Position numbers and translations under genes: made by a program | Part shown: positions 2,104-64,000 of the stretch, piece by piece | Layout: the number at the start of each line of letters is the position of its first letter | Position numbering within the stretch: position 1 is the stretch's first letter | Assembly: GCA_964621615.1 (NCBI GenBank) | Contig: CAZUMW010000003.1 | Span: forward strand, 131,619-195,618 | Direction: 5' to 3' | DNA from: an uncultured Thermodesulfobacteriota bacterium | GTDB taxonomy: Bacteria > Desulfobacterota > WTBG01 > CAIYCZ01 > CAIRTM01 | DNA length: 64,000 bases | The notes under the pieces: model-generated | What the model was told of the DNA's origin: nothing | The model's database searches: none | The model's input: the letters and a program-made list of their open reading frames with translations, nothing else

Positions 2104-2105
2104 CA

Positions 2106-3449: not shown

Positions 3450-3474
3450 CCTGCACAGAAATCATACGACTGCA

Positions 3475-4455: not shown

Positions 4456-4465
4456 GAATACACCC

Positions 4466-5290: not shown

Positions 5291-5298
5291 TTGACATC

Positions 5299-6084
5299 AT
5301 GGATAAGAAGGCAATGTATGCGGTTGTGTTAAGCTGTGATGCGTATAGATCGTTAGCCGAGCATATGATCTGCCGGTACAGGACGCTGTGGCCTGATCAT
5401 CCGTTCTGTTTTCGGCTGCCGTATCAGCAATTAAACGGCACCGACACAGCACAGGTGAACTATATCCGGACACCGGCAGGAATAAAAGACACCGTACTTA
5501 CGTTATTGGACGACCTCGGTGATAACGAGTGGATATATTGGTGTATCGATGATAAATATCCTGTTTTTTTAGATACAAAAGTTAAAAAAATAGCTCAGTG
5601 GGTCCGCGAAATTACAGAGATAACTGTCAGCGGTATTTTATTTTCCCGGCCTGAGAAATTATATCAGAAGGGGACCCTGAATAAAGACAGCATCACATCA
5701 CATGGGGGTATAAAACTGCGCGGCCGGACCGGCTATGATGCGATATGGAACCATCAGTTTTTACGAGTCAAGGTTATACGGCATTTATTTAATAATTTTC
5801 CGTCCCCGATTCATTGTGCGAAGAACATGGATCCGCTCAAAAGAAGCGTGACGCTTCCCCCGACGCACCGGTTGTTTGTAACAAAAAAAAGTTATGCTGT
5901 TTTTGGAGAGAGCACGTCCCGCGGTTTATTGACAAAAAATTGTTACGACAGCATCATGAAAAATAATTTGCCGTTACCCCCCTGGTTCAGCCAGACGAAC
6001 GGTGAAATAAAAATTCTCGGTAAAACCGGCTTTCTTACTTCGATGAGAATTTTTTTTGATAAAGTCCGGTCTGCAAAATTATAA
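5299..6084 (+). CDS. Hypothetical protein, possibly a nucleotide-sugar-dependent transferase
   Basis: 261 aa ORF in operon context. Contains a DxD-like CIDDKY. No firm family recognised. Confidence 0.3.
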   Translation: MDKKAMYAVVLSCDAYRSLAEHMICRYRTLWPDHPFCFRLPYQQLNGTDTAQVNYIRTPAGIKDTVLTLLDDLGDNEWIYWCIDDKYPVFLDTKVKKIAQWVREITEITVSGILFSRPEKLYQKGTLNKDSITSHGGIKLRGRTGYDAIWNHQFLRVKVIRHLFNNFPSPIHCAKNMDPLKRSVTLPPTHRLFVTKKSYAVFGESTSRGLLTKNCYDSIMKNNLPLPPWFSQTNGEIKILGKTGFLTSMRIFFDKVRSAKL

Positions 6085-6085
6085 T

Positions 6086-6115
6086 GTACTCCGCTGATTG
6101 GAGTACGTTTGTTCG
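6086..6115 (+). terminator. Weak hairpin terminator candidate
   Basis: GTACTCC-gctgatt-GGAGTAC followed by GTTTGTT, directly after the stop codon of the 5299-6084 gene. Confidence 0.3.
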
Positions 6116-6171
6116 GAATCCGGTAAACAATTTCGATTCTCTATTTTTCGGCGAACCTGTAAGCGTGCGAA

Positions 6172-7077
6172 ATGAATAATTTATTTTTTATATTGTATGA
6201 TTCACGATCCGGCTCTACTTTTCTTGCCAATCATTTGAGCAGATTATCTAATATTATTATACCCCCGGAAAATAATATAATTTCCTTACTTTTAAAAAAA
6301 TATCCTATCGAACAAAAGGTATCATTGGCTGACGTCATGAATTCAATATATGAGGATAGCAAATTTCAGGACTGGAATCTTGAAAGGGAATATATTGCAT
6401 CATATTTTAAAAACAAAAATATTGTAAGCATTAGAGAGTTTCTTGTTGGGTTGTTTTTTGTATATTGCACAAAGCTCGACAGTAAGGATTATCTTTTTGG
6501 AATAAAAAAGGGCAGTTATATCTTTTATTGGCGATCGATTAGAGCATTATTCCCTGAGGCAAAATTTGTGTGCCTCATACGAGACGGCAGAGCCGTATTT
6601 AACTCAAAAAAAAAGAGCATTTATTCAAAGACAGGAGAACCTTTTGAAAAAAGCCCTGTTCATGCTGCCGTTAAATGGAAAAACAAAATTCATGAAATAC
6701 GCAAACTGGAAGAAGAGCTGCCCGATAATACGCTTGTTGTATTATATGAAGACATAATGAAGGATTATGACCAAATGCTTGCTAAGATAAGTGAATTTTT
6801 GGGTGCCTCCCGGAATGCACAATATCATATGTATGCCCTGCCTGATAAGTATTCCAATCTTCACCCTCACATTGACAGCCCTCCCAAACTGGAACATATT
6901 AACAAATGGGAAAACGAGCTGTGTGATAATGAAATTGTAGCGTTTGAGACGATCGCGCACCAGGAATTACAAAAGAATGGATACCGGTTAAAAAGTAATA
7001 AAATTGAAAGGCTTACTATTCGATGCAGGCTGCAGTTAAAAAAATTTTTACGCAATACACGAATTGAGCGTACGTGA
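6172..7077 (+). CDS. Sulfotransferase-family protein (Stf0-like)
   Basis: N-terminal FFILYDSRSGSTFLANHL (PAPS-binding P-loop). AT-rich gene. Confidence 0.55.
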   Translation: MNNLFFILYDSRSGSTFLANHLSRLSNIIIPPENNIISLLLKKYPIEQKVSLADVMNSIYEDSKFQDWNLEREYIASYFKNKNIVSIREFLVGLFFVYCTKLDSKDYLFGIKKGSYIFYWRSIRALFPEAKFVCLIRDGRAVFNSKKKSIYSKTGEPFEKSPVHAAVKWKNKIHEIRKLEEELPDNTLVVLYEDIMKDYDQMLAKISEFLGASRNAQYHMYALPDKYSNLHPHIDSPPKLEHINKWENELCDNEIVAFETIAHQELQKNGYRLKSNKIERLTIRCRLQLKKFLRNTRIERT

Positions 7078-7154
7078 GAAGATGGTGTCGGAAAAGGGAT
7101 CTCACAGGTGAGATAAGCAGCGACGTTTTTTCATGCATGTTCATATGGTAGGCA

Positions 7155-8102
7155 GTGATGTTGATTATATGGAGTAGATTAAAAAAACAAAAGATTGCTA
7201 ATGTGTCATTGCTTTATCATATGGTCGGCTATGATCATAAAAATAATTTTATTAACAATAATATACATGGGATTGATGAAGATACATTCTATAGTCAAAT
7301 AAAATTATTAAAAAATAAATTTAGTTTTATTTATATAGATGAGATGGTCGAGAGAATAAAAAAAAGAAAATCTATAAAAAAACAGGCTTCAGTTACCTTT
7401 GATGACGGATATGTATCAATTTTGAATAAGGCTGTGCCGATTCTTGAGAGCTTAGAGATACCGGCGACACTTTTTTTGACAACAAAGCTTATTACCGGAG
7501 GCTCTTTTTGGCGTGACAAGGTGCGATACATCATTAACACCGGAATGACGCAGGAATTTCTTTCCTACGCGCGTCGGCGGGAACCGCTTTTTCATAATGT
7601 CCGGTCTGAATCTTTTTACCGTGAAACCAAGGACCCGGCTGTTATACACAGCGGGGCTGTTGAAACAATGCTGGACCGCTTTTTCTCGTACAAAGATATT
7701 GAGATCGAGCCGTATGCGAAAAAAACATATTGCAGTAAGAATGACCTTGCCGGCAGGCGGAATCGCTATCTGATGTTCGGCAATCACACGCACAGCCATT
7801 ATGTTTTATCCAGTCTTAACACAGATGAACAATATGAAGAGATTGTGCAGGCTGAAAAAATATTACATTTACTTGGGCTTCCCCTGTCAAAGGTTTTTTC
7901 CATCCCGTTTGGCCGGGATAGAGATTTTACTGCAGAAACACTCGACATACTCAGGCAGCGCGGGTATTCCGGGTATGCCATGTCTTCAGGGAGCACGATT
8001 GAAAATGCCTTTTCACCTGCAGTCGGCATCCGCAAAAATGACCTTGTCAGAATAAACCGGCTTATGCCTGAAAATAAACCAGCGGCATTTGTTCAACAAT
8101 GA
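7155..8102 (+). CDS. Polysaccharide deacetylase (NodB/CE4 family)
   Basis: VTFDDGYVSILNKAVPILESLEIPATLFLTT is the canonical CE4 TFDDG motif region. Conserved His-containing segment later in the protein. Confidence 0.7.
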   Translation: MMLIIWSRLKKQKIANVSLLYHMVGYDHKNNFINNNIHGIDEDTFYSQIKLLKNKFSFIYIDEMVERIKKRKSIKKQASVTFDDGYVSILNKAVPILESLEIPATLFLTTKLITGGSFWRDKVRYIINTGMTQEFLSYARRREPLFHNVRSESFYRETKDPAVIHSGAVETMLDRFFSYKDIEIEPYAKKTYCSKNDLAGRRNRYLMFGNHTHSHYVLSSLNTDEQYEEIVQAEKILHLLGLPLSKVFSIPFGRDRDFTAETLDILRQRGYSGYAMSSGSTIENAFSPAVGIRKNDLVRINRLMPENKPAAFVQQ

Positions 8103-8911
8103 GCAGAATAAACAGAAAACAAACGGGAGTATGCTTTGCTGTCGGGTGCGGGAGATCCGGAACCCATTTCCTCACGCGGATATTTAAAGAGGATCCCGCC
8201 ATTGCTTCTCATCATCTGGACACTATCGGTGAGTCAACCGGTGACAGCTTTCTTGAGTACTGCGAATGGAACCGGCTTCCGGTGGATCACGAAGGGTTTT
8301 TTCTGAATCGAAAAGAGCTGATAGACAGGTCAGCAGCAGCGGGCCGGTTATATTTTGAGGCAAATCCCTATCTTTCATTGAGCATTGTTCCCCTTCGCGA
8401 ACGATTTAATGCACAGGTTATCGCCCTGGTGAGAAACCCCCATGATGTGGTTAACTCTCATTATGTGAAAGGCTGGTATGAATACAATTTTGTGAGGGGA
8501 AGCAGCGCAAAGGCGCCCGGCTATCAATATCAAGCAAAAAGGGCAAACCATTTTTTCGGCAGAATTGTTCCGAGCGGCAATGAGTTCGACCGCTGGCTCC
8601 GGTTGTCAAGAATAGGAAAAATAGCATGGATGTGGAATGCGGTTAACAAAGAAATCATCAGTCAGCTCAGCGCTGTTCCGGAAGAGCATTGCCGGCTGAT
8701 AAAGGTGGAACATATTGATTTCGATATGTATCTGCAGCTGCATTCTTTTATCGGCGGCAAAGCGGCGATGACAAAAAGCGAGTTCAGCAAAATCAAAAAC
8801 AACAGGCCGGGGAAGGGACCTGAGAAGAGGCATATGTCCGATTGGTCGAGTCGGGAAAAAAGGGAATTTATAAAAGAAACAGAAGAAATGTGTTCGATCC
8901 TGAGCTACTGA
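8099..8911 (+). CDS. Sulfotransferase-family protein
   Basis: N-terminal CFAVGCGRSGTHFLTRIF P-loop. Overlaps the deacetylase stop (ATGA). Confidence 0.55.
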   Translation: MSRINRKQTGVCFAVGCGRSGTHFLTRIFKEDPAIASHHLDTIGESTGDSFLEYCEWNRLPVDHEGFFLNRKELIDRSAAAGRLYFEANPYLSLSIVPLRERFNAQVIALVRNPHDVVNSHYVKGWYEYNFVRGSSAKAPGYQYQAKRANHFFGRIVPSGNEFDRWLRLSRIGKIAWMWNAVNKEIISQLSAVPEEHCRLIKVEHIDFDMYLQLHSFIGGKAAMTKSEFSKIKNNRPGKGPEKRHMSDWSSREKREFIKETEEMCSILSY

Positions 8912-8980
8912 ACAGATGCACGCACATTGTATGCAGGACGGCTGTCTTTACTCCGGGACGAACCATCATGATGGTTTTTT

Positions 8981-9940
8981 ATGGATGATCACGATATTAC
9001 CGTGGTAATACGCTCAGCGCAGGACCGTACCGCGGCCGTCTGCAGTTATTTGGTAGGAAAATTATTTTCCGGTGATCGCGTATATAGTATTGAAGAAAGA
9101 CCTTTCTCAGCCGCGGTGCGAGCGGCGCTCGCAATAGGAGCTGAGCGCAGCCGGCCGTGGACGATGGTTGTTGATGCTGATGTGCTGATATCTGCAGGCG
9201 GTGTGGCTGCCCTTTGTAATGCAGCCGAAGCCGCTCCTGATAATTTTTTTGCGGTACAGGGCCTTATTTTGGATAAATTTTTTCCGGTCTTCCGCCCGTC
9301 AGGCATTCATATGTACAGAACGTCTTTAATTGATACGGCTCTCAGGTGCATACCTGCAGAGGGCACTTCTTTGCGCCCTGAATCGGATATGATCGATTCC
9401 ATGGCTCAGATGGGCTGCCCGTGGCTGCAGTGTGACGCCGTGGTCGGGGTTCACGATTTTGAGCAATACTACGCCGATATATTCAGGAAATGTTTTGTGC
9501 ATGCGCACAAGCATCAAAGCGTTATCGGCAGAGCTGAAGCATACTGGCGGGAGCAGCTCGACAGGGATTATGACTTCCAGGTGGCGCTGTGGGGCAGCGC
9601 TCTCGGCAAATCACATACCGGGCCGGTTGCTATAGATAAACAATGTGCCGAAAGACAATTTTGTGAGGTTGCTTCGATTAAGGGGATTGAGGAGAAGCCG
9701 GAGCTGTCCACGGGGGGCGACGATGCTGTTGCGGACAAAATATTGGGCGCCTATGACAGGGACTCTTTTGCTGAGTTACAGGCTGCCTTTTTTCGCAAAG
9801 AGCGGTGGAACATGGTTCATCGGTACGATGCCGAGACAAACGATACGGGGGCTGCAGGGCGGATGCCGTTTGTGAGAAAAGTACTGAGCGCAGCGGGCAA
9901 TGGCCTGATAGCCCTCGGGAAGCGTCTGCGGCATCAGTAA
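8981..9940 (+). CDS. Hypothetical protein, possible GT-A glycosyltransferase
   Basis: 319 aa. Has a VVDADV DxD-like motif. Family not firmly recognised. Confidence 0.3.
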   Translation: MDDHDITVVIRSAQDRTAAVCSYLVGKLFSGDRVYSIEERPFSAAVRAALAIGAERSRPWTMVVDADVLISAGGVAALCNAAEAAPDNFFAVQGLILDKFFPVFRPSGIHMYRTSLIDTALRCIPAEGTSLRPESDMIDSMAQMGCPWLQCDAVVGVHDFEQYYADIFRKCFVHAHKHQSVIGRAEAYWREQLDRDYDFQVALWGSALGKSHTGPVAIDKQCAERQFCEVASIKGIEEKPELSTGGDDAVADKILGAYDRDSFAELQAAFFRKERWNMVHRYDAETNDTGAAGRMPFVRKVLSAAGNGLIALGKRLRHQ

Positions 9941-45792: not shown

Positions 45793-45869
<77 letters not shown>

Positions 45870-49421: not shown

Positions 49422-50156
49422 ATGAATCACCGAAAGCGCATAAAAGATTCTGAAACTCCTTGGAAAACCAATGGTTGGGTTCCATTTGCGTTAGTTGAAA
49501 ATGAGGCAGAATTTGAAACGCTGCACAAATACCTACTGCTAGTTGAAGATCATATCAGAGACAAAACTGTGGCATTCGCGAGCAATATAAAGAAGACGAT
49601 AGAAAGACTAGGCCTAAGCGGACAAGATGCTGACTATTACTACGAGTCACATGAAAATGAATATGGCAGATTGCATGAAGCGTATCCCAACATTGCCCGT
49701 GCCACTGTGCTCTCAATGGCTTGTTCAGTTTTTGAAAGTGGACTTACAGAGATTTGCAAGGAGTTCGAAAGGACGGATGATGTGCAAACGACCCGAATCA
49801 AGTGGGATAAAATAAATAATGCAACCGGAATAATCAGAGCAAAAAAATACATCAAAAAAAATTTTGATATTCATTTTAATGAACATCAAGAGTGGCAGGC
49901 AATCCGAGATTATTATAAGGTGCGAGACTGCTTTGTACATGCGAACGGCGATGTATCTCTCATGAAAGAGAAGCAAAGTAAAGATATCGAATCGATTACC
50001 CGAAGAGTACCAGGGGTCACCATAGAATATAAACGTTTAAGGCTAGATAGCCGAAGATTTTTCGACGGTGTCTTTGGGACCATGAGTAGATTTTGGTCAG
50101 ACTTGAGGATAGCATTTCGAGAAAACGAAATTGTTGGTCCCGTTTACTGGGAGTAA
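49422..50156 (+). CDS. Hypothetical protein with HEPN-like Rx4H motif
   Basis: 244 aa, AT-rich codon usage. C-terminal region YYKVRDCFVHANG (K-x-R-D-x-F-V-H). Confidence 0.45.
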   Translation: MNHRKRIKDSETPWKTNGWVPFALVENEAEFETLHKYLLLVEDHIRDKTVAFASNIKKTIERLGLSGQDADYYYESHENEYGRLHEAYPNIARATVLSMACSVFESGLTEICKEFERTDDVQTTRIKWDKINNATGIIRAKKYIKKNFDIHFNEHQEWQAIRDYYKVRDCFVHANGDVSLMKEKQSKDIESITRRVPGVTIEYKRLRLDSRRFFDGVFGTMSRFWSDLRIAFRENEIVGPVYWE

Positions 50157-50250: not shown

Positions 50251-51279
50251 TTGTACAAACAGATTATTATGATCGCAAGAATTTACATACAACTCCCATT
50301 CGCTTTAACAATTCCGGAAAAAGAATCTTATCCAGTTTATGCCTATAAATTAGGTGCTTACAATATCTACTATTTCTTTCCGAAGAGAAGCGAGATGGCA
50401 AATAGATATTCCAGCGCTGACAGCATGAAAATGGACGGTAAGCCCGCAATGAGTGCAGATGTCTTACATATTGATTTCCAGACAAAAAGATTTAACCGAA
50501 AAGTCGATGCACAGGTTGATCCTCCGCCTGAATTGATAGAAGAAATTGCAAACGATTTTTTAGCAAGATTGAGATATGTTACCAATGCAAGCAAAATTAA
50601 ATTGATAAAATTATCTAATTTAAATTGGTCTTGTACATATCTGAAAGATGACGGCACTGAGTTAAGGAAAAATAAGCGCTATATTTGTGGCAGAGGAGTG
50701 AGAAAGTTCGTTTTTTCTTATGTGGCGTTGGATAAACAAATTTGGGAGGATATTCACTCTATTCCTCCGGGTTATGAATTTCCGGTTTGGAAAACGCTAT
50801 TACTTGATGCTGCTTCAATATTACCGGAAACTGGTCCAGCAATCATTTTGACCTTTACAGCATTAGAGGTGTTCATTTCAAAAATATTAGATAGTGTAGC
50901 CAAATATAATAAAATTGATCGGGATTTTTGGGGATGGGTCAATAGCCGAGGTTATTTAAAAGAACCAAGCATTGAGGAGAAATATAATTTTTTATCGCTA
51001 CATATAATTGGGAAATCAATAAAAGAGAATAATGATCTTTGGGAGGCTTTTAAACATCTCCGTAAGGCAAGAAATTCGTTCGCACACACTGGTGTAGCAA
51101 TGATTGGTGATGAACTTGTTACAGAAGAGAAAACCCGTTTTTTTATACGCAAAGCCAAAGAAATAATAGATTTTATAAAAAAAGAAATTCCAGAAGAATT
51201 GCGATGGCTTGAGTTTAAGCATGGAGTACAAATGGAAATTATCCAGGCGTTAAGACAGTCTATGGAAGAAGAGCAGTAA
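50251..51279 (+). CDS. Hypothetical protein with HEPN-like RNx3H motif (Abi-like)
   Basis: 342 aa, AT-rich. C-terminal region HLRKARNSFAHTG (K-x-R-N-x-F-A-H). Size and motif are reminiscent of the Abi_2 (AbiD/AbiF) family. Confidence 0.45.
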   Translation: MYKQIIMIARIYIQLPFALTIPEKESYPVYAYKLGAYNIYYFFPKRSEMANRYSSADSMKMDGKPAMSADVLHIDFQTKRFNRKVDAQVDPPPELIEEIANDFLARLRYVTNASKIKLIKLSNLNWSCTYLKDDGTELRKNKRYICGRGVRKFVFSYVALDKQIWEDIHSIPPGYEFPVWKTLLLDAASILPETGPAIILTFTALEVFISKILDSVAKYNKIDRDFWGWVNSRGYLKEPSIEEKYNFLSLHIIGKSIKENNDLWEAFKHLRKARNSFAHTGVAMIGDELVTEEKTRFFIRKAKEIIDFIKKEIPEELRWLEFKHGVQMEIIQALRQSMEEEQ

Positions 51280-52903: not shown

Positions 52904-53095
52904 GATCAGCAGGCTGATGATTGTTTGTTGAGGGAAGGGGTGCCCGGGGAAAATTTTATTGTCCTGAAAAACAAAAAAGTTTTTCAGAATCATAAATTTT
53001 TCCCCTTGGTTTGGGTGGTTGCAACAGAGTGTTTTTTTTAAGGCGGCTGATGATTGTTGTTTGGTGCGTGCGCTTTTGCAGCGGGGTATCAACCC

Positions 53096-53125
53096 CCAAT
53101 TTTTTTATCAAACAGAAAAAATTGG
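53096..53125 (+). promoter_or_regulatory. SD-sequestering leader hairpin (copy B, paralogous to copy A)
   Basis: CCAATTTTTT-tatcaaacag-AAAAAATTGG (10-bp stem). Differs from copy A by compensatory changes. The 3' arm overlaps GGAGG, then ttgataaa-ATG. Confidence 0.5.
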
Positions 53126-53136
53126 AGGTTGATAAA

Positions 53137-53268
53137 ATGGATTATGAAATGCATACAGTTTGTCTTTTTTGCGGGAAATGGCTTGAACCCGAAGAGGAGA
53201 AATCAGGTATTGCTTTTTGTTCTTCCTGTTATGAGATGTACCGGGAAGTTGCCTGGAAGGTTCATTAA
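53137..53268 (+). CDS. Small zinc-ribbon protein
   Basis: 43 aa, MDYEMHTVCLFCGKW...CSSCYEMY (CxxC-x18-CxxC). SD GGAGG 8 nt upstream. Confidence 0.4.
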   Translation: MDYEMHTVCLFCGKWLEPEEEKSGIAFCSSCYEMYREVAWKVH

Positions 53269-53682
53269 GTGGGGAGCAGCTCCCCCCCTTCACCCCCTCA
53301 GGGGGAAATTTCCGCTCCTTTTAGTCGCGCTATTGATATCGCTCGCTTTTTTTATTTTTTGGCTGGTTGTAAAAATAAAAGAGAATCGCGACCGTACGGT
53401 CGTGGTTCGAGCATGAGCGTGAGAAAGAAAGAGATAATATGAATAATACAGAGATATGTTTAAATCGAAGCGGGAAAGCTCCTTGAATTTGATCATAATG
53501 ATCAAATAATTAAATAATTAAAATAGAGATAATAATAATAACTTCTGAATTTGGTTGCCGGTCCTGTATTGTTTGGGGAAGGGCTCATCATGGTGCCCGG
53601 TTTTACCGGGTGCACATGTGAAGGCAATGAAAAGAGGAAAAGGGCCGGATTGCCGCACTTGGCAGGGTCCGGCCCGGCAGGA

Positions 53683-54405
53683 TTAATCACAGATACTGCA
53701 CCCCTTTTTTCTTTCAACCGTACTGCAGAATTCCGGGATAGTCCCGTCAAGAAACATCTCCTTATAGTTCCACACCCGCATCCTGTCCATAAAGAGGGTG
53801 TCGACCGCATACAGTACGATGCCTCCAACCACTTTGAGTATATCCTTTATGGCCGGCGTACCCGGGCAGGGGTTTTTACCGTCATTGATTGCATCGGGCC
53901 TGAAGCAGCCGAAACAGGCTTTGCCCGGCTCCTGCACATACACGTAGCCGGCATTGCCGAGTTCATTCACGGCAGTGAATATGACCGGTATGTTCCGGCG
54001 GTAATAGTAGTCGGAGACAAACACCCTGGCCGCATCATTGTCAACGCCGCATACCGCAACATCACAGCCAATGTCATGGGAGTCGAACCCGGCGGCATCC
54101 TGAAACTTCCAGGGAAAACCATTAAGACGGGTATCTCCAATACCGTCATGAACCAGGTTTTGTGCAAGCTGCACGGCCTTGTTTTTGTACAGATCTTTTT
54201 TGTAGAACCGTTGCCGGTTAAGGTTTGAAAGCTCCACCGTATCGTCATCAAAGATGCTAAGGGAGCCGACCCCCTTCCGGACAAGTCCCTCGCCGATCTC
54301 GCTACCCAGTCCACCGGCACCGATGAGGTTCAGTCTCAGCTTCCTGAATGTGTTCTGGCTGAACCCTTTGATCTTCTCCTGCCGATCGGTTGCCGGGGCC
54401 TCCAT
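53683..54405 (-). CDS. E1-like ubiquitin-activating / ThiF-MoeB family adenylyltransferase
   Basis: LNLIGAGGLGSEIGEGLVRKGVGSLSIFDDDTVELSNLNRQ nucleotide-binding fold. Two CxxC pairs (ACFGCF, GCSICD). Start placed at MEAPATD (54405). The longer frame to 54690 would run antisense-free but overlaps the JAB gene. Confidence 0.7.
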   Translation of the reverse strand: MEAPATDRQEKIKGFSQNTFRKLRLNLIGAGGLGSEIGEGLVRKGVGSLSIFDDDTVELSNLNRQRFYKKDLYKNKAVQLAQNLVHDGIGDTRLNGFPWKFQDAAGFDSHDIGCDVAVCGVDNDAARVFVSDYYYRRNIPVIFTAVNELGNAGYVYVQEPGKACFGCFRPDAINDGKNPCPGTPAIKDILKVVGGIVLYAVDTLFMDRMRVWNYKEMFLDGTIPEFCSTVERKKGCSICD

Positions 54406-54952
54406 CCTGTGCGTTTTCTGCAGCGGCGTTACGGTTAAAAAAACCGGCTGTTGTGAATCTGAAATGTGTGTCGTCAATTTGCTCAACCCCCTTTCCGTAG
54501 ACGTGAATAATAAAGGGTAGATTGTGTGAAAAAAATCTGATCTGCCCGTCTCTGGTAAATATGCCGCCGATGGCATTGTATCCTCCCGCCTCAATCCGTG
54601 CCTGGTAGTCGAGGTCGATACCCGATGGCGATGAGAAATTTCCGGGATGGCTGTGAAAGTGTGCGTGAAGGCGATGGCCGAACATTTCATCCATTGTTAT
54701 AAGGGTTTTTGCCACCGAATTGATATCGGTTTTGACCTGTACGGGGCTCTGAGTTTGCATCTTTACCTGCTGCATATAGTCAAAGGTCCGCATCCAGCCC
54801 ACCCTGATACCGGTGACAAAATGAAAGACTTCATTAGGACCCATTGAGGTTAGGTACCGGTAACACCGGTACAGAAAAAGCGAGCCGGTCATGAAACACA
54901 GAGGCGTTGCAAGCTCATTCTTGCCTTTCTGAAAAACGTTCGGAAAAAACAT
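54302..54952 (-). CDS. JAB/JAMM (MPN+) family metallopeptidase
   Basis: JAMM motif E...HAHFHSHPGNFSSPSGID (H-x-H-x7-S-x2-D). The 3' end overlaps the E1-like gene by ~100 nt in another frame. Confidence 0.7.
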   Translation of the reverse strand: MFFPNVFQKGKNELATPLCFMTGSLFLYRCYRYLTSMGPNEVFHFVTGIRVGWMRTFDYMQQVKMQTQSPVQVKTDINSVAKTLITMDEMFGHRLHAHFHSHPGNFSSPSGIDLDYQARIEAGGYNAIGGIFTRDGQIRFFSHNLPFIIHVYGKGVEQIDDTHFRFTTAGFFNRNAAAENAQDGGPGNRSAGEDQRVQPEHIQEAETEPHRCRWTG

Positions 54953-54973
54953 GGCATACCTCCCCTGGCAGAT

Positions 54974-55354
54974 TTAAAATCCAAAATATATTTCATGTAT
55001 GATTCGTTCTATGTGAATTATCCCCGAATCGATATCCCGCGGCTGCCGGCTGAAGTGAATAAAGAATTTTCCACCGCCTTTATGGTTGTTGAAACATGCA
55101 CCATGTTCGGGATGATCCAGGATTTTTCCGGTTGGTTCATAAATATAGAACCTGAGTTCGGTCGGAAGACGATATTCTTCGATAAGGCCTTGAAAGTCGG
55201 TAAGCAAGGAGATTTTATATCGGCCGTGATAGGAAAACCCCAAACCTCTGGGGCTTCGTATCCAGCCGTTTTCCTCCCAGTAGGGTTTCAGGGACCGCTT
55301 TATCCGCAGCGGTCCGGTCCTGAAAGCCGGGTCGGATTTGATGCGGATGGTCAT
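54974..55354 (-). CDS. Putative E2-like (UBC-fold) protein
   Basis: 127 aa from MTIRIK (strong SD AGGAGG 8 nt upstream). Contains a DHPEHGAC segment resembling the E2 HPN-x-Cys active-site region. Positioned between the Ubl and JAB genes. Confidence 0.4.
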   Translation of the reverse strand: MTIRIKSDPAFRTGPLRIKRSLKPYWEENGWIRSPRGLGFSYHGRYKISLLTDFQGLIEEYRLPTELRFYIYEPTGKILDHPEHGACFNNHKGGGKFFIHFSRQPRDIDSGIIHIERIIHEIYFGF

Positions 55355-55418
55355 AGGGTATCCTCCTTTCAAAAAAAAAGAGGACAGCAGGATGTCGGCA
55401 CTGCTGCCCTCCCATAGA

Positions 55419-55646
55419 TCAGCCGACCATAGCATTGGTGATTGCAAAGAGTTTGGCACCGTCATTAACATGCGGGTACACCACCTCGGTATCGGCAAAC
55501 GGAGGATGTGAGGGACCGAGTGAGAGTTTGTAGCCATAGAGGTTAAGCTGGTGGCAAATATCATATGCTGTTGTGCCGGGTTCTATAGTGATGTCATGGG
55601 GTTCCCCGTCGGTGCTTGCTACCTTGACTGCAAGTCTTTTTGCCAT
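55419..55646 (-). CDS. Putative ubiquitin-like (beta-grasp) protein ending in Gly
   Basis: 75 aa (MAKRLAVKV...AITNAMVG-stop). The size, a Gly immediately before the stop, and the position at the head of the E2-JAB-E1 genes support a Ubl. SD GAGGAG 9 nt upstream. Confidence 0.45.
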   Translation of the reverse strand: MAKRLAVKVASTDGEPHDITIEPGTTAYDICHQLNLYGYKLSLGPSHPPFADTEVVYPHVNDGAKLFAITNAMVG

Positions 55647-55659
55647 GATATGTGTCTCC

Positions 55660-55917
55660 TCAGGATATGGTTTTTTTGATGTTTTCATCCGGTTTGCTGC
55701 CGGTGGAATTGACCAGACCCTGCATTACTTCAGGCCGTTCACCGGTGATCAGATCCTCAAGATCGGTAAGGCTTTTCCACTTCATGGCCTTCAATATCGT
55801 CAGAATCTCAAGCAGTGTCCTGCAGGTTTTCAGATCAATTCCCTTCACTTTTTCCTGCACGATATTTTTGAGAACGATATCGCACAGGTCCTGCTTTTTT
55901 TCATTTTTGCCGGACAT
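55660..55917 (-). CDS. Small hypothetical protein heading the Ubl-E2-JAB-E1 operon
   Basis: 85 aa, Lys-rich and helical. Very strong SD (AGGAGGTG). Its stop is 13 nt before the Ubl start. Confidence 0.4.
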   Translation of the reverse strand: MSGKNEKKQDLCDIVLKNIVQEKVKGIDLKTCRTLLEILTILKAMKWKSLTDLEDLITGERPEVMQGLVNSTGSKPDENIKKTIS

Positions 55918-56338: not shown

Positions 56339-56848
56339 ATGAGTCTGACACCGGAAACCATGCTTTCATACTTTGATGTGAAATACGTATATACCGGGAC
56401 ATACACACCGATAAAGGCGCAGTACGGGTCACCACTCGGCCCGGACCGGTATGCCGGCGGTTATGCCGGATCCGTGTCGGCCGCTGCGGACCCCCTGGAG
56501 CAGATCATGGGCGAAAAGAAGCAGCTTCTGCAGTCAAAAATCGAGATGCTTCTTGCCGGTATTGAGCAGCGAAGGAAGATCAAACAGGACAATATGTACC
56601 GCATCGATCTTGATTCCTGCGATGTTAACACCATGATCTTTCAGCTGCCGCCTTACCGGAAATACGGCATTGACCGGGAACGCTTGACGCTTGAGCGAAT
56701 GAAAAAGGATCTTGAAAAACAAAGAAGGGCGGAAGAAGTAAATTATTTTCGGGATCTGTCATTTATGCAAAAAGATCTGATCGAGACCGCCATACAGTAC
56801 CTTGGCGAGCAGAACAAACAACGGATACTGTCGGCGTCGGAGGAATAA
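56339..56848 (+). CDS. Hypothetical protein (first gene of the nuclease/ATPase operon)
   Basis: 169 aa, no recognised domain. Followed 2 nt later by the next gene. Confidence 0.4.
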   Translation: MSLTPETMLSYFDVKYVYTGTYTPIKAQYGSPLGPDRYAGGYAGSVSAAADPLEQIMGEKKQLLQSKIEMLLAGIEQRRKIKQDNMYRIDLDSCDVNTMIFQLPPYRKYGIDRERLTLERMKKDLEKQRRAEEVNYFRDLSFMQKDLIETAIQYLGEQNKQRILSASEE

Positions 56849-56850
56849 CC

Positions 56851-57039
56851 ATGTATGTAACAGAAGATGATATAAAAAAACTTTTATATGAACCGCTTGA
56901 ATTTGCAAGCAGAATGGAAACCGCTGAGATTGATTACGTACTGGAGAAATTTTTGGACGTACGCACTGTAAAATATAAATACCAGGAGGACTTTATGAAA
57001 TCAAAATGGCAAAAAGAATACAATCCCCTTCATCGATAA
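56851..57039 (+). CDS. Small hypothetical protein
   Basis: 62 aa, acidic N-terminus. Overlaps the start of the nuclease gene. Confidence 0.35.
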   Translation: MYVTEDDIKKLLYEPLEFASRMETAEIDYVLEKFLDVRTVKYKYQEDFMKSKWQKEYNPLHR

Positions 57040-57749
57040 ACATGTACAATCGATGTCCCCGTAAGTATTTCCTGCACTACATATTAAAAAATCCCATCAA
57101 ACCGAACATCCATCTGTACCGCGGCTCAATCGTACACAGCACCCTGCATCTGTTCGAACAGCTCAAGCTCAGCAACATTACCCGGAAGGACCACCCGCAG
57201 CTCAGAACACAGCTGCTGGATATCTTTTATGCAGAGTGGAAAAGGCATGCAGAAGACATTGCCGGGCTGTGGCTGCCCGATGATGTCGTAAACGGGTTCC
57301 GGGAGGAAAGCATCATGATGCTTGACAATTTTCTTGCTCATTACATTGAGGAACAGATACGCGGTCCGCCGGAGAAAAAGACCGAGCTCAAGCTGTTCTC
57401 CGGTGACGAATACTCGGTGATGGGTATCGTTGACCTCATAAAGGAAAAGGACGGAACCGTTGAGATCATCGACTACAAAACCGCAAAAAAAGCGGACATG
57501 ACAGCAGAATACCGGCTGCAGCTTGCAATCTATGCGCTGCTGTATGAAGAAAAATTTAACCGGCTGCCTTCCCGTGTCGGGATTCATTTCCTGAAGTACA
57601 AAGACGGTGTCAGGATGATTGAGGTCGACGAGCAGCTTGTCAACCTTGCCAAACGCGAGGCAAAGCTGATTCATGTCAATACCGCCTCGGACAATCCTGC
57701 CGATTATCCCTGCAGGTGCGGGGGATGGTGCGAGAGGGATTTTGCATGA
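57006..57749 (+). CDS. Cas4-like / RecB-family PD-(D/E)xK nuclease with Fe-S cluster cysteines (DUF83-like)
   Basis: N-terminal SPSSINMYNRCPRKYFLHY (Cas4 motif with first Cys). VMGIVDLIKE...EIIDYKTAKK (D...E-x-D-Y-K catalytic motif). C-terminal CRCGGWC (Cx1Cx3C), giving a 4-Cys cluster. Confidence 0.65.
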   Translation: MAKRIQSPSSINMYNRCPRKYFLHYILKNPIKPNIHLYRGSIVHSTLHLFEQLKLSNITRKDHPQLRTQLLDIFYAEWKRHAEDIAGLWLPDDVVNGFREESIMMLDNFLAHYIEEQIRGPPEKKTELKLFSGDEYSVMGIVDLIKEKDGTVEIIDYKTAKKADMTAEYRLQLAIYALLYEEKFNRLPSRVGIHFLKYKDGVRMIEVDEQLVNLAKREAKLIHVNTASDNPADYPCRCGGWCERDFA

Positions 57750-59701
57750 GAAACGATATCAGAGAAACGTTGCAGAAGCTGAAACCGCTTATCGGTAAAA
57801 AGGCCGATGCCCTGTGGCTGTTGTACCAGTCTGCAGATTACCGGGAACGGGGGGATGTTGAAATAAAGATCAACCTTATTGCCGAAAAATATCTCAGAAG
57901 TTTTGAGGATAAAATCGAGCTGCCGCCGTTAACAAGTGCGGATGCAGCAGGAGAGTTGGAAGTCGGCCGGGTAAACTATGCAGACAAAAATCTCTACGGT
58001 TTCGGGCTCAGAAAGCAGGAGCTTCTGAAACATATCGGCATATTCGGTCAAACAGGAAGCGGCAAAACCGTTGCAACGTTGAACCTTTTAAAAGAACTTT
58101 GCAGTCAGAAGGTGCCGTTTCTGGTGTTTGACTATAAGCGTAATTACCGGGACATAATCGACCACCCGGATTTTACAGATGAAGAGATTCTTATCTTTAC
58201 CGTGGGCCGTGACATATCCCCGTTTTATTTCAACCCGAAAAACAAACCGCCCGGAGTTGAGCCGCACGTATGGAACAAAAAATTGTGCAACGTTATCGAG
58301 AAAGCCTATTACCTGGGCTATGGTGCCATGGATGTTATTATGGAAGCATTCGGCAGCAAAACCTTCAAGGAAATGGAGGGCTATCTTAAAAAGCAGCGCA
58401 AGCGTGCCAGGGAGCTTTTGTGGTATATGAGCGCAAAAAGGACTTTGAATGCGATTAATTTCCCGGGGCTCTCAGAGGTCGTAAACTGTGAGAAAGGATA
58501 CCCGATTGAAGAACTCCTGAAGAAGAAAGTCATCCTGGAACTCGACGGACTTTCCGATACCGACAAGGCGTTTTTTACCGGCAGCCTGCTTTTGTGGATC
58601 TATTACTTTCGTTTATGCGAACAGCAAAGAGAGACGGTGAAACATGCGGTCATAATCGAAGAGGCACATAATCTTTTCTACAAAACAAAACACGATGCCG
58701 AAGATATCACCGACATTATTATGCGTGAGATAAGAGAGCTGGGTGAGAGTATCACCGTAATCGACCAGCTTCCTCACCGTATTTCGCTCACTGCACTGGG
58801 AAACATCTTTACAAAAATCTGCCTCAGCCTGTCGCTGACCCAGGATATCATTGCCATGAGCAATGCTCTGTTGCTTGACAACCATCAGAAGCGATACCTC
58901 GGCATGCTGACACTCGGCAGGGCTATTGTAAAGACGGGAAGACATCCGTTTCCCTTTCTTGTCACCATCCCTGCGTTTAATTTGCGCAAGGGCTCGATCA
59001 GCGACAGCGGTGTAAAACAGCATATGCGTCCGTATTTGAAGCATTTAGGCCGTGAAATGCCTCCGATGCCGAAAACGGCAGATGTTCAGGGTGTTCAAAA
59101 ACCTGATTCCCTGTCCCCCATTGCGAAGATTTTGCTTAGCGATATCTGCATGAATCCCTTTGCCGGTATCGTCAAACGGTATAAAACACTGGGGCTGGGC
59201 ACGGCGGAAGGAACTGCGGCACAGCAGGAACTTATGGACAGGCACCTGATTAGAGCCGTAACCGTCGAGGGTACAAAGATCCTTGATTTGACCGATACCG
59301 GAAAAGAACTGGTGAAATCTATGGGTATACAGGGGTCTTTTAAAAAGCCCCGCGGCGGGACAATCCACAATTATTACATACACCGCATAAAAAAAGAGCT
59401 GATAAAAGCAGGCCGGTTTACATTCATTGAACATGACCGGATTGATATCGTTACGCAAAGCGGAAACCTTCACCAGACCATTGCAATAGAGGTTGAGACC
59501 GGCACGTCCACCATTGAAGGAAATCTGTGGAAACTTGCAAAACATACCGCTGACCGGAAGTATATGATAGCAACAAACAAAGAAGCGCTGAAACATATTG
59601 AGCAGATATACGCTCCTTTGTTAATACCTGATAAGGAAAAGATAAAGATATATTATGTCAAAGATTTCCTTGCAGACCTTCCCCACATCCTTTCATGCTG
59701 A
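57746..59701 (+). CDS. HerA/FtsK-like (DUF87-type) P-loop ATPase with C-terminal wHTH/endonuclease-like region
   Basis: Walker A GIFGQTGSGKTVATLNLL followed by LVFDYKRNY (HerA-type). Walker B VIIEEAHNLF. C-terminal ~200 aa with HTH-like and IEHDRIDIV...IAIEVETG segments. ATGA start/stop overlap with the nuclease gene. Confidence 0.6.
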   Translation: MRNDIRETLQKLKPLIGKKADALWLLYQSADYRERGDVEIKINLIAEKYLRSFEDKIELPPLTSADAAGELEVGRVNYADKNLYGFGLRKQELLKHIGIFGQTGSGKTVATLNLLKELCSQKVPFLVFDYKRNYRDIIDHPDFTDEEILIFTVGRDISPFYFNPKNKPPGVEPHVWNKKLCNVIEKAYYLGYGAMDVIMEAFGSKTFKEMEGYLKKQRKRARELLWYMSAKRTLNAINFPGLSEVVNCEKGYPIEELLKKKVILELDGLSDTDKAFFTGSLLLWIYYFRLCEQQRETVKHAVIIEEAHNLFYKTKHDAEDITDIIMREIRELGESITVIDQLPHRISLTALGNIFTKICLSLSLTQDIIAMSNALLLDNHQKRYLGMLTLGRAIVKTGRHPFPFLVTIPAFNLRKGSISDSGVKQHMRPYLKHLGREMPPMPKTADVQGVQKPDSLSPIAKILLSDICMNPFAGIVKRYKTLGLGTAEGTAAQQELMDRHLIRAVTVEGTKILDLTDTGKELVKSMGIQGSFKKPRGGTIHNYYIHRIKKELIKAGRFTFIEHDRIDIVTQSGNLHQTIAIEVETGTSTIEGNLWKLAKHTADRKYMIATNKEALKHIEQIYAPLLIPDKEKIKIYYVKDFLADLPHILSC

Positions 59702-60057: not shown

Positions 60058-60999
60058 ATGATGAAAACAAAAAGCAACAAATCAGAAAATGGGTTCAATC
60101 TCTATCAGCACATCACTGATAAAATCATTGAAGCGCTTGAAAAAGGTGTCGGACCGTGGGTGCGGCCATGGGACGATTCCGGAGTGCAGTTCATCTGGCC
60201 GAGAAACGCGTTATCGGCCAGACCGTACAACGGGATAAATGTCCTGCTTTTGAACATGGTTGCCCTTGAAAAAGGCTATACGGACCCGCGCTGGGTGACC
60301 TTCACCGATGTAAAAAAGCGCGGCGGACACATAAACAAAGGTGAACGCCATACAAAAATCGTTTTCTGGAAATTCCTGGAGCGCCGGGACCGACAGGAAG
60401 ACGACGACACGCACAGAGACGAGCATACCGGTAAAAAGGTTATACCGCTTCTGCGCTATTACCGTGTTTTTAATGTGCAGCAGTGCAAGGGTTTAAAATT
60501 AAAAGAGCTTCAGAAGCCCGAGCCGGAAACTGCTGCAGGCGGGGAAAACATCCGGGCGGAAAAAATCCTGTCACTGCCCGACATACGAACCGGCGGGAAC
60601 CGTGCCGTCTATCATCCTGGACAGGATATCATACAGCTGCCGCCGAAAACATCTTTTAAAAACCTGCAGCATTATTACGCCACCGGCTTCCATGAAACGG
60701 TTCACTGGTCAGGTCACGGTACACGGCTTACCCGCAGTTTCGGTAAACGATTCGGTGACGACACATACGCAATGGAAGAGTTGGTTGCCGAGATCGGATC
60801 GGCATTCCTGGGCGGTCATGTCGGTCTGCCGTTTACGGAGATGCGTCATCCTGAATACATACAGTCCTGGATTACATCCCTGAAAAACGACAACAGGGCA
60901 ATATTCACCGCATGCCGGATGGCGCAGGCTGCAAGTGATTACATTTTGAAAAACGCCGGCATTGACCGGCCTGAGGACCAAACAGCGGCTGTCCTCTGA
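60058..60999 (+). CDS. ardC: ArdC-like antirestriction protein (N-terminal ssDNA-binding domain + zincin metalloprotease domain)
   Basis: N-terminal NLYQHITDKIIEALEKGVGPWVRPWD...PYNGINVLLL (DUF1738/ArdC-N). C-terminal HETVHWSGH (HExxH). Confidence 0.75.
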   Translation: MMKTKSNKSENGFNLYQHITDKIIEALEKGVGPWVRPWDDSGVQFIWPRNALSARPYNGINVLLLNMVALEKGYTDPRWVTFTDVKKRGGHINKGERHTKIVFWKFLERRDRQEDDDTHRDEHTGKKVIPLLRYYRVFNVQQCKGLKLKELQKPEPETAAGGENIRAEKILSLPDIRTGGNRAVYHPGQDIIQLPPKTSFKNLQHYYATGFHETVHWSGHGTRLTRSFGKRFGDDTYAMEELVAEIGSAFLGGHVGLPFTEMRHPEYIQSWITSLKNDNRAIFTACRMAQAASDYILKNAGIDRPEDQTAAVL

Positions 61000-62400: not shown

Positions 62401-62847
62401 ATGAAGCGGATAAACATAGTCAGGATAATGCAGGTTCGGGAGGGCAATCTTTCCTATGATACATCGACTGTGTCATGCAATGGTGATGCGGCACATATCG
62501 TCGAAAAATTCCTGGAAGGCGTCGACCGTGAACACTTCGGCGTGCTGTGTCTGAACGCAAAAAACAGGATCAATGCCATCAATACTGTTTCCATCGGAGC
62601 GGTTGACCAGTGTATGGTAACCCCGCGTGAATGCTATAAGGCAGCCATTCTCAGCAACAGCGTATCAGTAATATTTTTTCACAACCACCCCAGCGGCGAT
62701 CCTGCGCCCAGCCGACATGATACGCATTTGACCGGAATCCTGGTTGAAAGCGGAAAGATCCTGGGCATAACGGTTCACGACCACATCATCACAGCCGGCA
62801 ACGGCAGATACATCAGCATGCGGGATGAAAATCCCGACATGTTCTGA
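62401..62847 (+). CDS. radC: RadC-like JAB-domain protein (UPF0758)
   Basis: VIFFHNHPSGDPAPSRHDTHLT is the RadC/JAMM signature. Common on conjugative elements. Confidence 0.8.
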   Translation: MKRINIVRIMQVREGNLSYDTSTVSCNGDAAHIVEKFLEGVDREHFGVLCLNAKNRINAINTVSIGAVDQCMVTPRECYKAAILSNSVSVIFFHNHPSGDPAPSRHDTHLTGILVESGKILGITVHDHIITAGNGRYISMRDENPDMF

Positions 62848-63990: not shown

Positions 63991-64000
63991 ACCAAAATTA

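Follow-up and report, generated by a model that had tools for sequence, protein, structure and literature searches.

Within the window, the whole 64,000-nt stretch of DNA that was analysed, ORF reading placed five co-directional genes on the minus strand, at the coordinates first given for them in a preliminary description of this DNA, and each of the first four is preceded by an RBS. The genes and the features around them are as follows:

55660..55917, minus strand: g1, an 85-aa Lys/Glu-rich protein with 13 Lys (strong RBS, GGAGGTG), first gene of the transcription unit
55419..55646, minus strand: Ubl, 75 aa (RBS GAGGAG), ending ...AMVG right before the stop codon
55371..55413, minus strand: hairpin resembling a terminator, with a 13-bp stem and a U9 tail, immediately 3' of the Ubl stop codon
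54974..55354, minus strand: E2-like protein, 126 aa (RBS AGGAGG), with HPEHGAC as residues 81-87
54302..54952, minus strand: JAB/JAMM metallopeptidase, 216 aa (RBS GGGAGG), with the full E...HxHx7Sx2D motif
53683..54405, minus strand: E1, a single-domain MoeB/ThiF-type adenylyltransferase, 240 aa, with GAGGLG, CFGC and CSIC
53629..53675, minus strand: hairpin resembling an intrinsic terminator with a U-rich tail, from RNA folding, at the end of the operon
57006..57749, plus strand: Cas4-like PD-(D/E)XK nuclease (Pfam PDDEXK_1, 6.5e-26; PADLOC Cas4 models, best 1.1e-16)
57716..59701, plus strand: HerA/FtsK/VirD4-superfamily ATPase, 661 aa (Pfam DUF87, 1.4e-10, and TrwB_AAD_bind; PADLOC mad8 and HerA)
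45793-45869, plus strand: tRNA-Met (ARAGORN), island boundary
47457-45988, minus strand: tyrosine integrase (Pfam Phage_integrase, Arm-DNA-bind_2) adjoining the tRNA-Met, island boundary

The Ubl gene starts 13 nt after the g1 stop codon, and the hairpin that closes the operon folds with a dG of -24 kcal/mol (z -4.1), a value that 0 of 200 shuffles equalled. The E1 ORF extends from 54690 to 53683 and overlaps the JAB ORF; its true start is internal, at either ATG 54405 (240 aa, with a conserved ...DRQxKIxGFxQ N-terminus) or TTG 54477 (264 aa, the Logan-contig call), and the JAB ORF runs past the TTG start to encode a conserved C-terminal tail. A frameshift or a JAB-E1 fusion at a T7 run in the overlap was considered; the orthologs likewise have overlapping, separate genes. 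The Logan contigs that contain the operon are copies of this element at 100% identity and add no independent information.

The surroundings agree with the tRNA-integrated island proposed earlier: the tyrosine integrase lies next to tRNA-Met, GC content changes from ~57% to ~45% at the island, and HEPN proteins recognized by PADLOC models flank the cassette. In a repeat search for attR, the tRNA 3' end did not recur within the window, so the far end of the island lies beyond position 64000. The ATPase gene is divergent from the cassette, with the nuclease gene upstream of it and overlapping it. ArdC and RadC are encoded on the same island (Pfam scan), and no relaxase was seen in the window up to position 64000.

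Structure prediction for the 75-aa Ubl, with an alignment of database proteins as input, returned a beta-grasp model, so that the fold test named beforehand for this protein came out positive by structure model. In the structure search the model resembles ubiquitin, ISG15 and BilA, and neither ThiS nor MoaD is among its top 60 matches. The C-terminal Val-Gly is conserved in the family and directly precedes the stop codon, so the Ubl is encoded in its mature form. Some related Ubls carry variable tails after the VG, and six related loci encode the Ubl and the E2-like protein as one fusion; together, these tails and fusions imply maturation by the JAB. The latter protein was correctly taken to be a JAMM/JAB metallopeptidase, as its motif HSHPGNFSSPSGID reads HxHx7Sx2D and sequence reading adds the upstream Glu in GPNEVFHF, predicted from the motif to be the catalytic Glu at about residue 41. 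The Pfam Prok-JAB family matches the window JAB weakly (E=0.007) and is on record for the orthologs in L002, L005 and L006, and phmmer relates the window protein to its orthologs at 1e-41 to 1e-14.

The E1 also bears out its assignment as an E1/ThiF-like enzyme with GxGxxG and two CxxC pairs: it is a single Pfam ThiF domain (E=3.5e-27) that holds GAGGLG, NLNRQ, VDND and the pairs CFGC and CSIC, and ortholog alignment identifies a conserved crossover-loop Cys180 in PCPG. Its best solved relatives are MoeB and ThiF, which align over the full length (residues 8-239 against 14-247 of the 249-aa MoeB), and in relatives of the cassette the E1 measures 218-291 aa. The NCBIfam models all score far below their cut-offs (ThiF 76.7 vs 275; MoeB 72.1 vs 449; UbaA 63.7 vs 450), and alignment to the PADLOC E1-E2 models is confined to the E1 part.

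The third cassette protein had been described as a 127-aa E2 candidate with an HPEHGAC segment; the motif is present, at residues 81-87, and the length is 126 aa. A word-indexed search with this protein recovered only itself, and its relatives, 411 at the level of 50% clusters, came from an exhaustive HMMER scan. Pfam gave no match for the window protein at E<=1 and none for 68 relatives at E<=0.01, the Prok-E2_A to Prok-E2_E and canonical UBC families included, and neither the protein nor a 68-sequence profile found anything credible in Pfam, PADLOC, NCBIfam, PHROGs, PDB sequences or PLSDB plasmids. An hhalign comparison with four canonical E2s gave no match (probability 0.13%), and Foldseek against the PDB gave no significant match. 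The structure model of the E2-like protein has a UBC/UEV/RWD-like fold, in keeping with a four-strand meander, then an active-site loop and a helix, and with structural similarity to E2/UEV/RWD domains, and the UBC-like fold, a second test named beforehand, is thus supported by structure model. The motif takes the form H-x2-C-F followed by a beta-hairpin, not the HPN-x(7-8)-C of canonical UBC proteins, and Cys87 occupies the loop following strand 4 and the PP motif, which is the site of the E2 catalytic Cys. Cys87, Phe88 and His100 are invariant in the 68 aligned relatives and His84 is near-invariant, so the candidate E2 appears from its family alignment to have the conserved Cys expected of it. 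A zinc site of the form HxHxxC...H was also considered for this protein and is unlikely, as the fourth ligand, His82, is not conserved.

These observations bear on whether the E2-like protein acts as an enzyme or as a non-catalytic UEV/RWD-type Ubl-binding adaptor or membrane anchor beside an E1 that conjugates directly, as in SAMP/UbaA. An adaptor of this kind would suit an E1 closest to MoeB, ThiF and UbaA-type enzymes, and it would also suit two exceptional homologs: that of L014 has Asn at the His100 position, and that of L003 is tandem-duplicated with a first copy that has no Cys. In that first copy, however, the Cys and the His are lost together, which we count in favor of E2-like catalysis, and both the invariance of Cys87, Phe88 and His100, unexpected for a pure binding module, and the E2-like placement of Cys87 make a purely non-catalytic role unlikely. 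A different use of the same E1, in a ThiS/MoaD-ThiF/MoeB-type sulfur-carrier or cofactor biosynthesis module whose JAB would be Mec+-like and which would not modify proteins, is suggested by ThiF and MoeB being its best sequence matches and by the occurrence of a JAB, an E1 and a small beta-grasp protein in CysO-type pathways as well (Iyer 2006, PMC1779556). We judge this very improbable, since the window and the related loci hold no rhodanese, ThiG, MoaE or CysM-type partner and no nearby thiamine, molybdopterin or cysteine genes, the ThiF and MoeB models remain far below their cut-offs, the likeness of the Ubl model is to ubiquitin, ISG15 and BilA, with ThiS and MoaD outside its top 60 matches, and the cassette, which is carried by mobile elements, includes a UBC-fold protein whose Cys is invariant. 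The SAMP/UbaA/HvJAMM1 and ThiS/MoaD-ThiF/MoeB systems do share with the cassette a JAMM peptidase, a small beta-grasp protein that ends in Gly and an E1 with a single domain of the MoeB/ThiF type, but they are chromosomal housekeeping systems without an E2, whereas here the UBC-fold protein is always present and the setting is a mobile element.

Related loci were gathered with the E1 alignment as query. The order Ubl-E2like-JAB-E1 is kept in about 35 of them, in many bacterial phyla, many of them uncultured (WOR-3, Brocadia, Zixibacteria, Omnitrophota, Ignavibacteria, Acidobacteria, Acetothermia and others) and in three archaea (Methanosarcinaceae, Halobaculum and Methanobacteriota). The layout is not a product of chance, since other organisms repeat it in about 35 independent loci. 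The claim of a complete Ubl-E2-JAB-E1 operon stands. A VirD4/HerA-type ATPase adjoins ~2/3 of the related loci, and most of the loci with the ATPase also have a Replic_Relax relaxase; some have integrases as well. In 12 distinct loci the genes for a T4CP-like ATPase and Replic_Relax follow the cassette immediately, and in 4 further loci they lie upstream of it, beside an integrase; in 6 of 11 T4CP-type loci the E2-like protein bears an N-terminal transmembrane helix. Five divergent loci (L016, L025-L028) lack the ATPase/relaxase association, which counts against a role tied to the mobile element, as do the divergent orientation of the ATPase gene in the window and the failure to see a relaxase there up to position 64000. 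The window ATPase has HerA-type homologs in five other loci (L009, L012, L014, L015 and L019), among them the cassette-adjacent ATPase of L012 (BLASTP E=2e-23), and is weakly linked to the T4CP-type ATPase of L056. Since its homologs accompany the cassette elsewhere, the window ATPase likely either works together with the cassette or belongs to the backbone of the element. In several loci integrases and a ParB-MT-A70 gene flank the cassette, and in several related elements defence cargo lies beside it (GmrSD, type I CRISPR, Lamassu-like genes and SIR2). These defence genes vary, whereas the ATPase, relaxase, integrase and ParB-methyltransferase genes keep a fixed position across phyla, and a fixed position of the cassette relative to transfer genes is a pattern typical of backbone and not of cargo. 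The neighbourhood had been called defence-like, a description that does not extend to the conserved partners, which are the VirD4/HerA-type ATPase, Replic_Relax, the integrase and the ParB-methyltransferase.

To our knowledge, bacterial Ubl conjugation has so far been demonstrated for CBASS Cap2, Bil and Bub, the first two of which serve antiphage immunity. The preliminary description had placed the operon with Bil, an ISG15-like antiphage ubiquitination system of two types (Chambers et al., preprint, PMC10557695). Bil too consists of four separate genes in the order Ubl-E2-JAB-E1 with the same four activities (PMC10557695), its Ubl has a conserved Gly often followed by a short tail that the JAB removes, and the Ubl fold is nearer to eukaryotic Ubls than to ThiS or MoaD. 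The Bil E2 has its catalytic Cys138 and, 13 residues downstream, a conserved His151 (PMC10557695), a spacing equal to that of Cys87 and His100 here. Together with the HEPN proteins and the pair of HerA and Cas4-like nuclease that adjoin the cassette, and with the defence genes beside it in related elements, these parallels speak for antiphage defence like that of BilABCD, in which a phage structural protein would be tagged with the Ubl during infection and the cassette would be island cargo. We consider this role doubtful. Both Bil types have been described with an E1 that contains IAD and CYS domains (PMC11601596), whereas the E1 here, at 240-264 aa, has one adenylation domain, no inactive adenylation domain and no CYS insertion, and aligns end to end with the 249-aa MoeB. 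The E2-like protein could not be linked by sequence to any known prokaryotic E2 family and fits no Prok-E2, PADLOC or NCBIfam model; among the PADLOC defence models there is no match for the Ubl or the E2-like protein and only a marginal one for the JAB (E=0.0096). Further departures from Bil are the Ubl-E2 fusion or membrane-anchored E2 of some relatives, the archaeal carriers, and conserved neighbours that are mobile-element transfer genes, relative to which the cassette is fixed across phyla while the neighbouring defence genes vary. Judged by these sequence comparisons, the cassette resembles the antiphage Bil systems and does not appear to be one of them.

Other known systems differ in other ways. 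An ancillary CBASS module had been excluded at the outset, and we agree: in contrast to the Cap2/Cap3 of type II CBASS, the E2-like protein and the E1 are separate genes without E2-E1 fusion, no CD-NTase was found among the neighbours scanned, and the modifier is a dedicated Ubl, not a cyclase C-terminus. The solved Citrobacter E1, an annotated BubCD fusion (PDB 9eav), is a weak match to the window E1 (E=9e-5). Bub operates through oxyester (Ser) intermediates (PMC11601596) and its Ubls have one to three beta-grasp domains after N-terminal domains (PMC11601603); its peptidase, BubD, is of the serine type, whereas here we find an invariant Cys in the E2-like protein, a separate JAMM peptidase and one 75-aa beta-grasp. 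The '6E' label given to the operon is mistaken, for in Iyer et al. 2006 that row covers JAB-E1 fusions with multi-Ubl proteins and an inactive E2 (PMC1779556). The operons of row 6d are described there as containing a Ubl, a JAB with JAB-N, an E1, an E2 with a downstream His and an alpha-helical protein (Iyer, Burroughs and Aravind 2006, PMC1779556). They are similar to the present operon in having five genes (a small Gly-terminal Ubl, a separate JAB, an E1, an E2-like protein and an extra small helical protein) and an absolutely conserved His downstream of the Cys in the E2-like protein. Row 6d is presumably the PRTRC cassette (ParB-related, ThiF-related), which is found on proteobacterial ICEs and plasmids. 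Location on mobile elements is a further likeness, as is the ParB-family gene that flanks the cassette in several relatives. Unlike in row 6d/PRTRC, the JAB here has no room for JAB-N, its catalytic Glu coming so early, a further His is retained in the E2-like protein, ahead of the Cys, and the extra gene is not conserved. Of the NCBIfam PRTRC models (proteins A-F and PRTRC_ThiF), only PRTRC_ThiF gave a match, to the E1 and below threshold, at 39.4 bits vs a cut-off of 144.75; the other four proteins gave nothing. Literature searches returned no description of the cassette, which does not prove that none exists, and the family is apparently without annotation or published description.

We think it probable that the four genes form a functional minimal Ubl conjugation cassette, representing a distinct, apparently unannotated family that integrative mobilizable or conjugative elements carry as part of their backbone, in bacteria as well as archaea. 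For its proteins, folds and motifs were assigned from tool results, and the chemistry that follows is inferred from established E1/E2/JAMM enzymology and the Bil precedent. The E1, presumably a homodimer, would adenylate the C-terminal Gly75 of the Ubl, with a thioester then probably formed on the crossover-loop Cys180. The Ubl would be handed to Cys87 of the E2-like protein, where the neighbouring invariant His100 would assist catalysis, and be moved from there onto a lysine of target proteins. The JAMM peptidase would strip the conjugates and, in tailed or E2-fused relatives, would also expose the Ubl Gly. With its MoeB-sized single-domain E1, 126-aa UBC-fold protein bearing a Cys and a His, JAMM peptidase and 75-aa tag, the cassette has the simplest architecture with a separate E2 that we know of; if it truly conjugates proteins, it would offer a compact model for E1-to-E2 transfer without a CYS domain or UFD and would raise the question of what use Ubl tagging is to mobile elements. 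The eukaryotic ubiquitin precursor fusions would have a prokaryotic counterpart in the Ubl-E2 fusions.

As for the role of such a conjugation cassette, the conserved synteny suggests that it more likely serves the mobile element itself than belongs to freely exchangeable defence cargo. It may regulate or protect the transfer/establishment machinery (the VirD4/HerA-type ATPase and the Replic_Relax relaxase), or its targets may be host proteins. We tentatively propose that it could be a core module of a widespread, cross-domain element family in which Ubl conjugation controls DNA transfer or establishment, with the ATPase, relaxase or proteins of the recipient host as possible targets. Were this the case, a ubiquitin-type system would serve horizontal gene transfer and not immunity, by way of a minimal E1-E2 cascade on a MoeB-sized E1 whose conjugating E2-like enzyme is often membrane-anchored or made fused to its own Ubl.

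The leading 85-aa gene, put forward as a possible new accessory component, does not keep that standing. The g1 protein is a singleton 90% cluster without a match in Pfam, PADLOC, NCBIfam or PHROG, it is otherwise present only in L054 and L055, which are identical copies of this element, and the about 35 related loci contain no homolog of it, nor do their small upstream proteins show similarity to it. Lacking homologs in the related loci, g1 is specific to this element, and its likeliest role is that of a local regulator or adaptor, co-transcribed with the cassette without being a core component. The hairpin that follows the Ubl gene (dG -20.7 kcal/mol, z -2.05, by RNA folding) was not called by the consensus terminator scan, its predicted 10-nt loop being longer than the 3-8 nt that the scan allows, and it is possibly an attenuator that gives a high ratio of Ubl to enzymes.

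Five co-directional open reading frames occupy the minus strand from 55917 to 53683, each with a Shine-Dalgarno-like sequence ahead of it:

55917-55660, minus, g1, the leading gene, 85 aa with 13 Lys
55646-55419, minus, Ubl candidate, 75 aa, its C-terminus ...AMVG abutting the stop codon
55354-54974, minus, E2 candidate, 126 aa, residues 81-87 reading HPEHGAC
54952-54302, minus, JAMM (JAB) peptidase, 216 aa, motif HSHPGNFSSPSGID with a Glu upstream within GPNEVFHF
54690-53683, minus, ThiF-type E1 (open reading frame), with GAGGLG, CFGC and CSIC

The preliminary description had the coordinates and motifs correct throughout, apart from giving the E2 candidate 127 aa. The E1 and JAB open reading frames overlap. 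Orthologs retain the JAB tail GFFNRN and have an E1 N-terminus that reads ...DRQxKIxGFxQ, which places the E1 start at ATG 54405 (240 aa) or at TTG 54477 (264 aa; the start called on a Logan contig). The overlap (54302-54477, minus) is 104 nt with the ATG and 176 nt with the TTG; E1 is read in frame +1 with respect to JAB, and a T7 run (GGTTTTTTTAAC, ~54440) falls inside it. Shorter overlaps of the two genes occur in orthologs, and the gene calls of one Logan contig miss the JAB gene and put a 66-aa antisense open reading frame in its place.

The E1 stop is followed by a strong hairpin with a U-rich tail (dG -24 kcal/mol, z -4.1). Just past this terminator, on the opposite strand, lies a small open reading frame with a zinc-ribbon-like CxxC...CxxC pattern (53011-53268, plus); in some related elements a 141-aa zinc-ribbon and transmembrane protein adjoins the relaxase gene. 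A second, terminator-like hairpin stands directly 3' of the Ubl stop and ahead of the E2-like gene (55371-55413, minus), with a 13-bp stem, a 10-nt loop and a U9 tail (dG -20.7, z -2.05); it went uncalled in a consensus terminator scan, which admits loops of 3-8 nt, shorter than the 10 nt predicted here. We infer that this hairpin may act as an attenuator, so that the g1 and Ubl transcript would outnumber that of the enzyme genes and the modifier would be made in excess over its enzymes.

The E1 matched Pfam ThiF at E=3.5e-27, and it aligned over its whole length with its nearest solved relatives, MoeB and ThiF of E. coli (query residues 8-239 against 14-247 of 249); every NCBIfam equivalog model scored far under its cut-off. 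The JAB protein gave a weak match to Pfam Prok-JAB (E=0.007), but it carries the full catalytic motif and its orthologs are recorded as Prok-JAB.

The E2 candidate had no match in Pfam, PADLOC, NCBIfam, PHROGs or PDB sequences, and a word-indexed protein search returned only the query itself. An exhaustive HMMER scan recovered 411 representative relatives, with E<=1e-10 for 52, and none of the 68 examined carried a Pfam domain. Their alignment has the consensus FYIxxPPxxLxxHxHxxCF...HFS, with Trp31, Gly44, Gly56, Cys87, Phe88 and His100 invariant and Tyr46, Pro74, His84, Gly111 and Glu116 nearly so. Because Foldseek against the PDB gave no significant match and hhalign found none to canonical E2s, the E2 assignment, although moderately strong, would hold at the level of the fold only. 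The Cys of HPEHGAC had been put forward as the E2 active site; this residue, Cys87, is a candidate counterpart of the E2 catalytic Cys. The E2-like domain is tandemly duplicated in one related locus (L003, 6001-6891), where copy one lacks both Cys and His.

Members of the Ubl family end in a conserved Val-Gly, after which the chain stops (as in the window), runs on for 1-16 variable residues or continues into a fused E2-like domain; such translational fusions, with VG at the junction, occur in six related loci (L007, L012, L015, L016, L023 and L026). Tails and fusions of this kind mark a modifier that needs a peptidase to free its Gly. In the mechanism we propose, the E1 would adenylate Gly75 of the Ubl, the thioester would pass via E1 Cys180 to Cys87 of the E2-like protein with His100 assisting, and the Ubl would be joined to targets by an isopeptide bond; JAB would deconjugate it and, in relatives, also process Ubl precursors. 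The folds, the catalytic motifs, the synteny, the tails and fusions, and the conservation of the Ubl Gly, of the Cys and His in the E2-like protein and of the Cys in the E1 loop are tool-derived, and the chemistry is modeled on established E1, E2 and JAMM enzymology and on the Bil precedent.

The cassette had been likened to the BilABCD antiphage system, with which it shares the gene order and a Cys-x12-His arrangement (Cys138 and His151 in BilB, the Bil E2; PMC10557695). The Bil E1, however, is described with an inactive adenylation domain and a CYS domain in both types (PMC11601596), and the window E1 has neither, so that membership in Bil fails on a defining feature. The '6E'-type label, also given initially, does not fit, since that row of Iyer et al. 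2006 comprises JAB-E1 fusions, multi-Ubl proteins and inactive E2 domains (PMC1779556); the closest description there is row 6d (Ubl, JAB, E1, an E2 with a downstream His, and a helical protein). A CBASS module, rejected from the outset, is excluded by the lack of an E2-E1 fusion and of a CD-NTase, Bub by its Ser chemistry and BubCD fusion, and a sulfur-carrier system by the absence of partner enzymes, the ubiquitin-like Ubl and the presence of the E2-like protein. NCBIfam PRTRC models did not match the window proteins, and the JAB-N domain is absent. We found no description of the cassette in the literature, where our limited coverage of Aravind-group work leaves its absence unproven.

The leading gene g1 is co-transcribed with the Ubl gene, since the gap is 13 nt and contains no terminator. 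It matched no family and forms a singleton cluster present only in identical copies of the same element. None of the related loci has a counterpart; the gene upstream of the cassette elsewhere varies (MerR-like HTH, sigma-54 activator, DUF2958, DNA methyltransferase or ATPase). The suggestion that g1 is a new accessory component is thus not borne out: it is element-specific, and not a fifth conserved member of the cassette.

Related loci were gathered from contigs encoding E2-like or Ubl homologs and from species-representative genomes scanned with an E1 alignment. Among the ~35 independent loci, local phmmer and hmmsearch mapping gave the order Ubl-E2like-JAB-E1, as first proposed, in every sufficiently long one. 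Bacterial hosts include WOR-3, Brocadia, Zixibacteria, Omnitrophota, Ignavibacteria, Acidobacteria, Entotheonellaceae, Acetothermia, Sumerlaeota, Phycisphaerales and Anaerolineae; the three archaeal carriers are a Methanosarcinaceae MAG, a Methanobacteriota MAG and the isolate Halobaculum sp. EA56. The neighbors are mobile-element genes. At 12 distinct loci a VirD4/TraG-like (T4CP-type) ATPase (DUF87, TrwB_AAD_bind, TraG-D_C) and a Replic_Relax relaxase come after the E1. A second group of four elements is arranged ATPase-Replic_Relax-integrase-(methyltransferase or DUF2958)-cassette, with ParB_N/MT-A70 downstream in three of the four and, past these, variable defense cargo (GmrSD, type I CRISPR, Lamassu-like genes, SIR2). 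The ATPase of five loci is a homolog of the 661-aa HerA-type ATPase of the window (57716-59701; BLASTP E=2e-23 to L012), and five divergent loci showed neither ATPase nor relaxase. In this small sample the E2-like protein bears an N-terminal transmembrane helix in 6 of 11 T4CP-type loci vs none of five HerA-type loci. The window cassette belongs to a minimal Ubl-E2-JAB-E1 family, widespread and unannotated, that is linked to an integrative mobile-element backbone in bacteria and archaea. Its biological role is probably a mobile-element function and, less likely, a Bil-like defense. The original observation was real and its biochemical reading largely right, its family label wrong in detail; the interest of the locus lies in this mobile-element-linked minimal family, which differs from what was then proposed. 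At an Anaerolineaceae locus (L027), a second ThiF protein of larger size (429 aa, 2327-3616) and a 678-aa JAB-domain protein (4589-6625) lie directly downstream of the cassette and may form a second Ubl-type system in tandem.

The window cassette sits, as had been recognized, in a tRNA-integrated, low-GC island. Its start is marked by tRNA-Met (45793-45869), alongside a tyrosine integrase and an AlpA-like gene, and its other end lies past the window edge; it also holds two HEPN proteins, a Cas4-like nuclease, the HerA-type ATPase, ArdC and RadC. The adjacent HEPN-type Rx4H proteins (49422-50156 and 50251-51279, both plus; motifs RDCFVH and RNSFAH) have weak HEPN matches in Pfam and PADLOC (RTasHEPN at 3.9e-7) and are possibly a cargo pair of abortive-infection type. 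A divergent plus-strand unit (57006-59701, with 56339-57039) encodes 169-aa and 62-aa proteins, the Cas4-like PD-(D/E)XK nuclease and the HerA/FtsK-type ATPase, and could be a defense module or the element's DNA-processing machinery. The C-terminal ~190 residues of this ATPase, unmatched in Pfam, resemble by eye a separate 118-123 aa protein of L012 and L015, encoded between ATPase and cassette and weakly matching a CoiA nuclease-like Pfam family. An ArdC-type antirestriction protein (60058-60999, plus; ArdcN and a zincin-like metallopeptidase domain) and a RadC-like JAB protein (62401-62847, plus) are of kinds typical of conjugative or mobilizable elements. Unconnected with the Ubl cassette is a further low-GC stretch at ~2000-9000 (35-37% at 4-8 kb), whose genes for a Wzt-type ABC transporter ATPase, a polysaccharide deacetylase and two sulfotransferases resemble a cluster for modifying cell-surface glycans.
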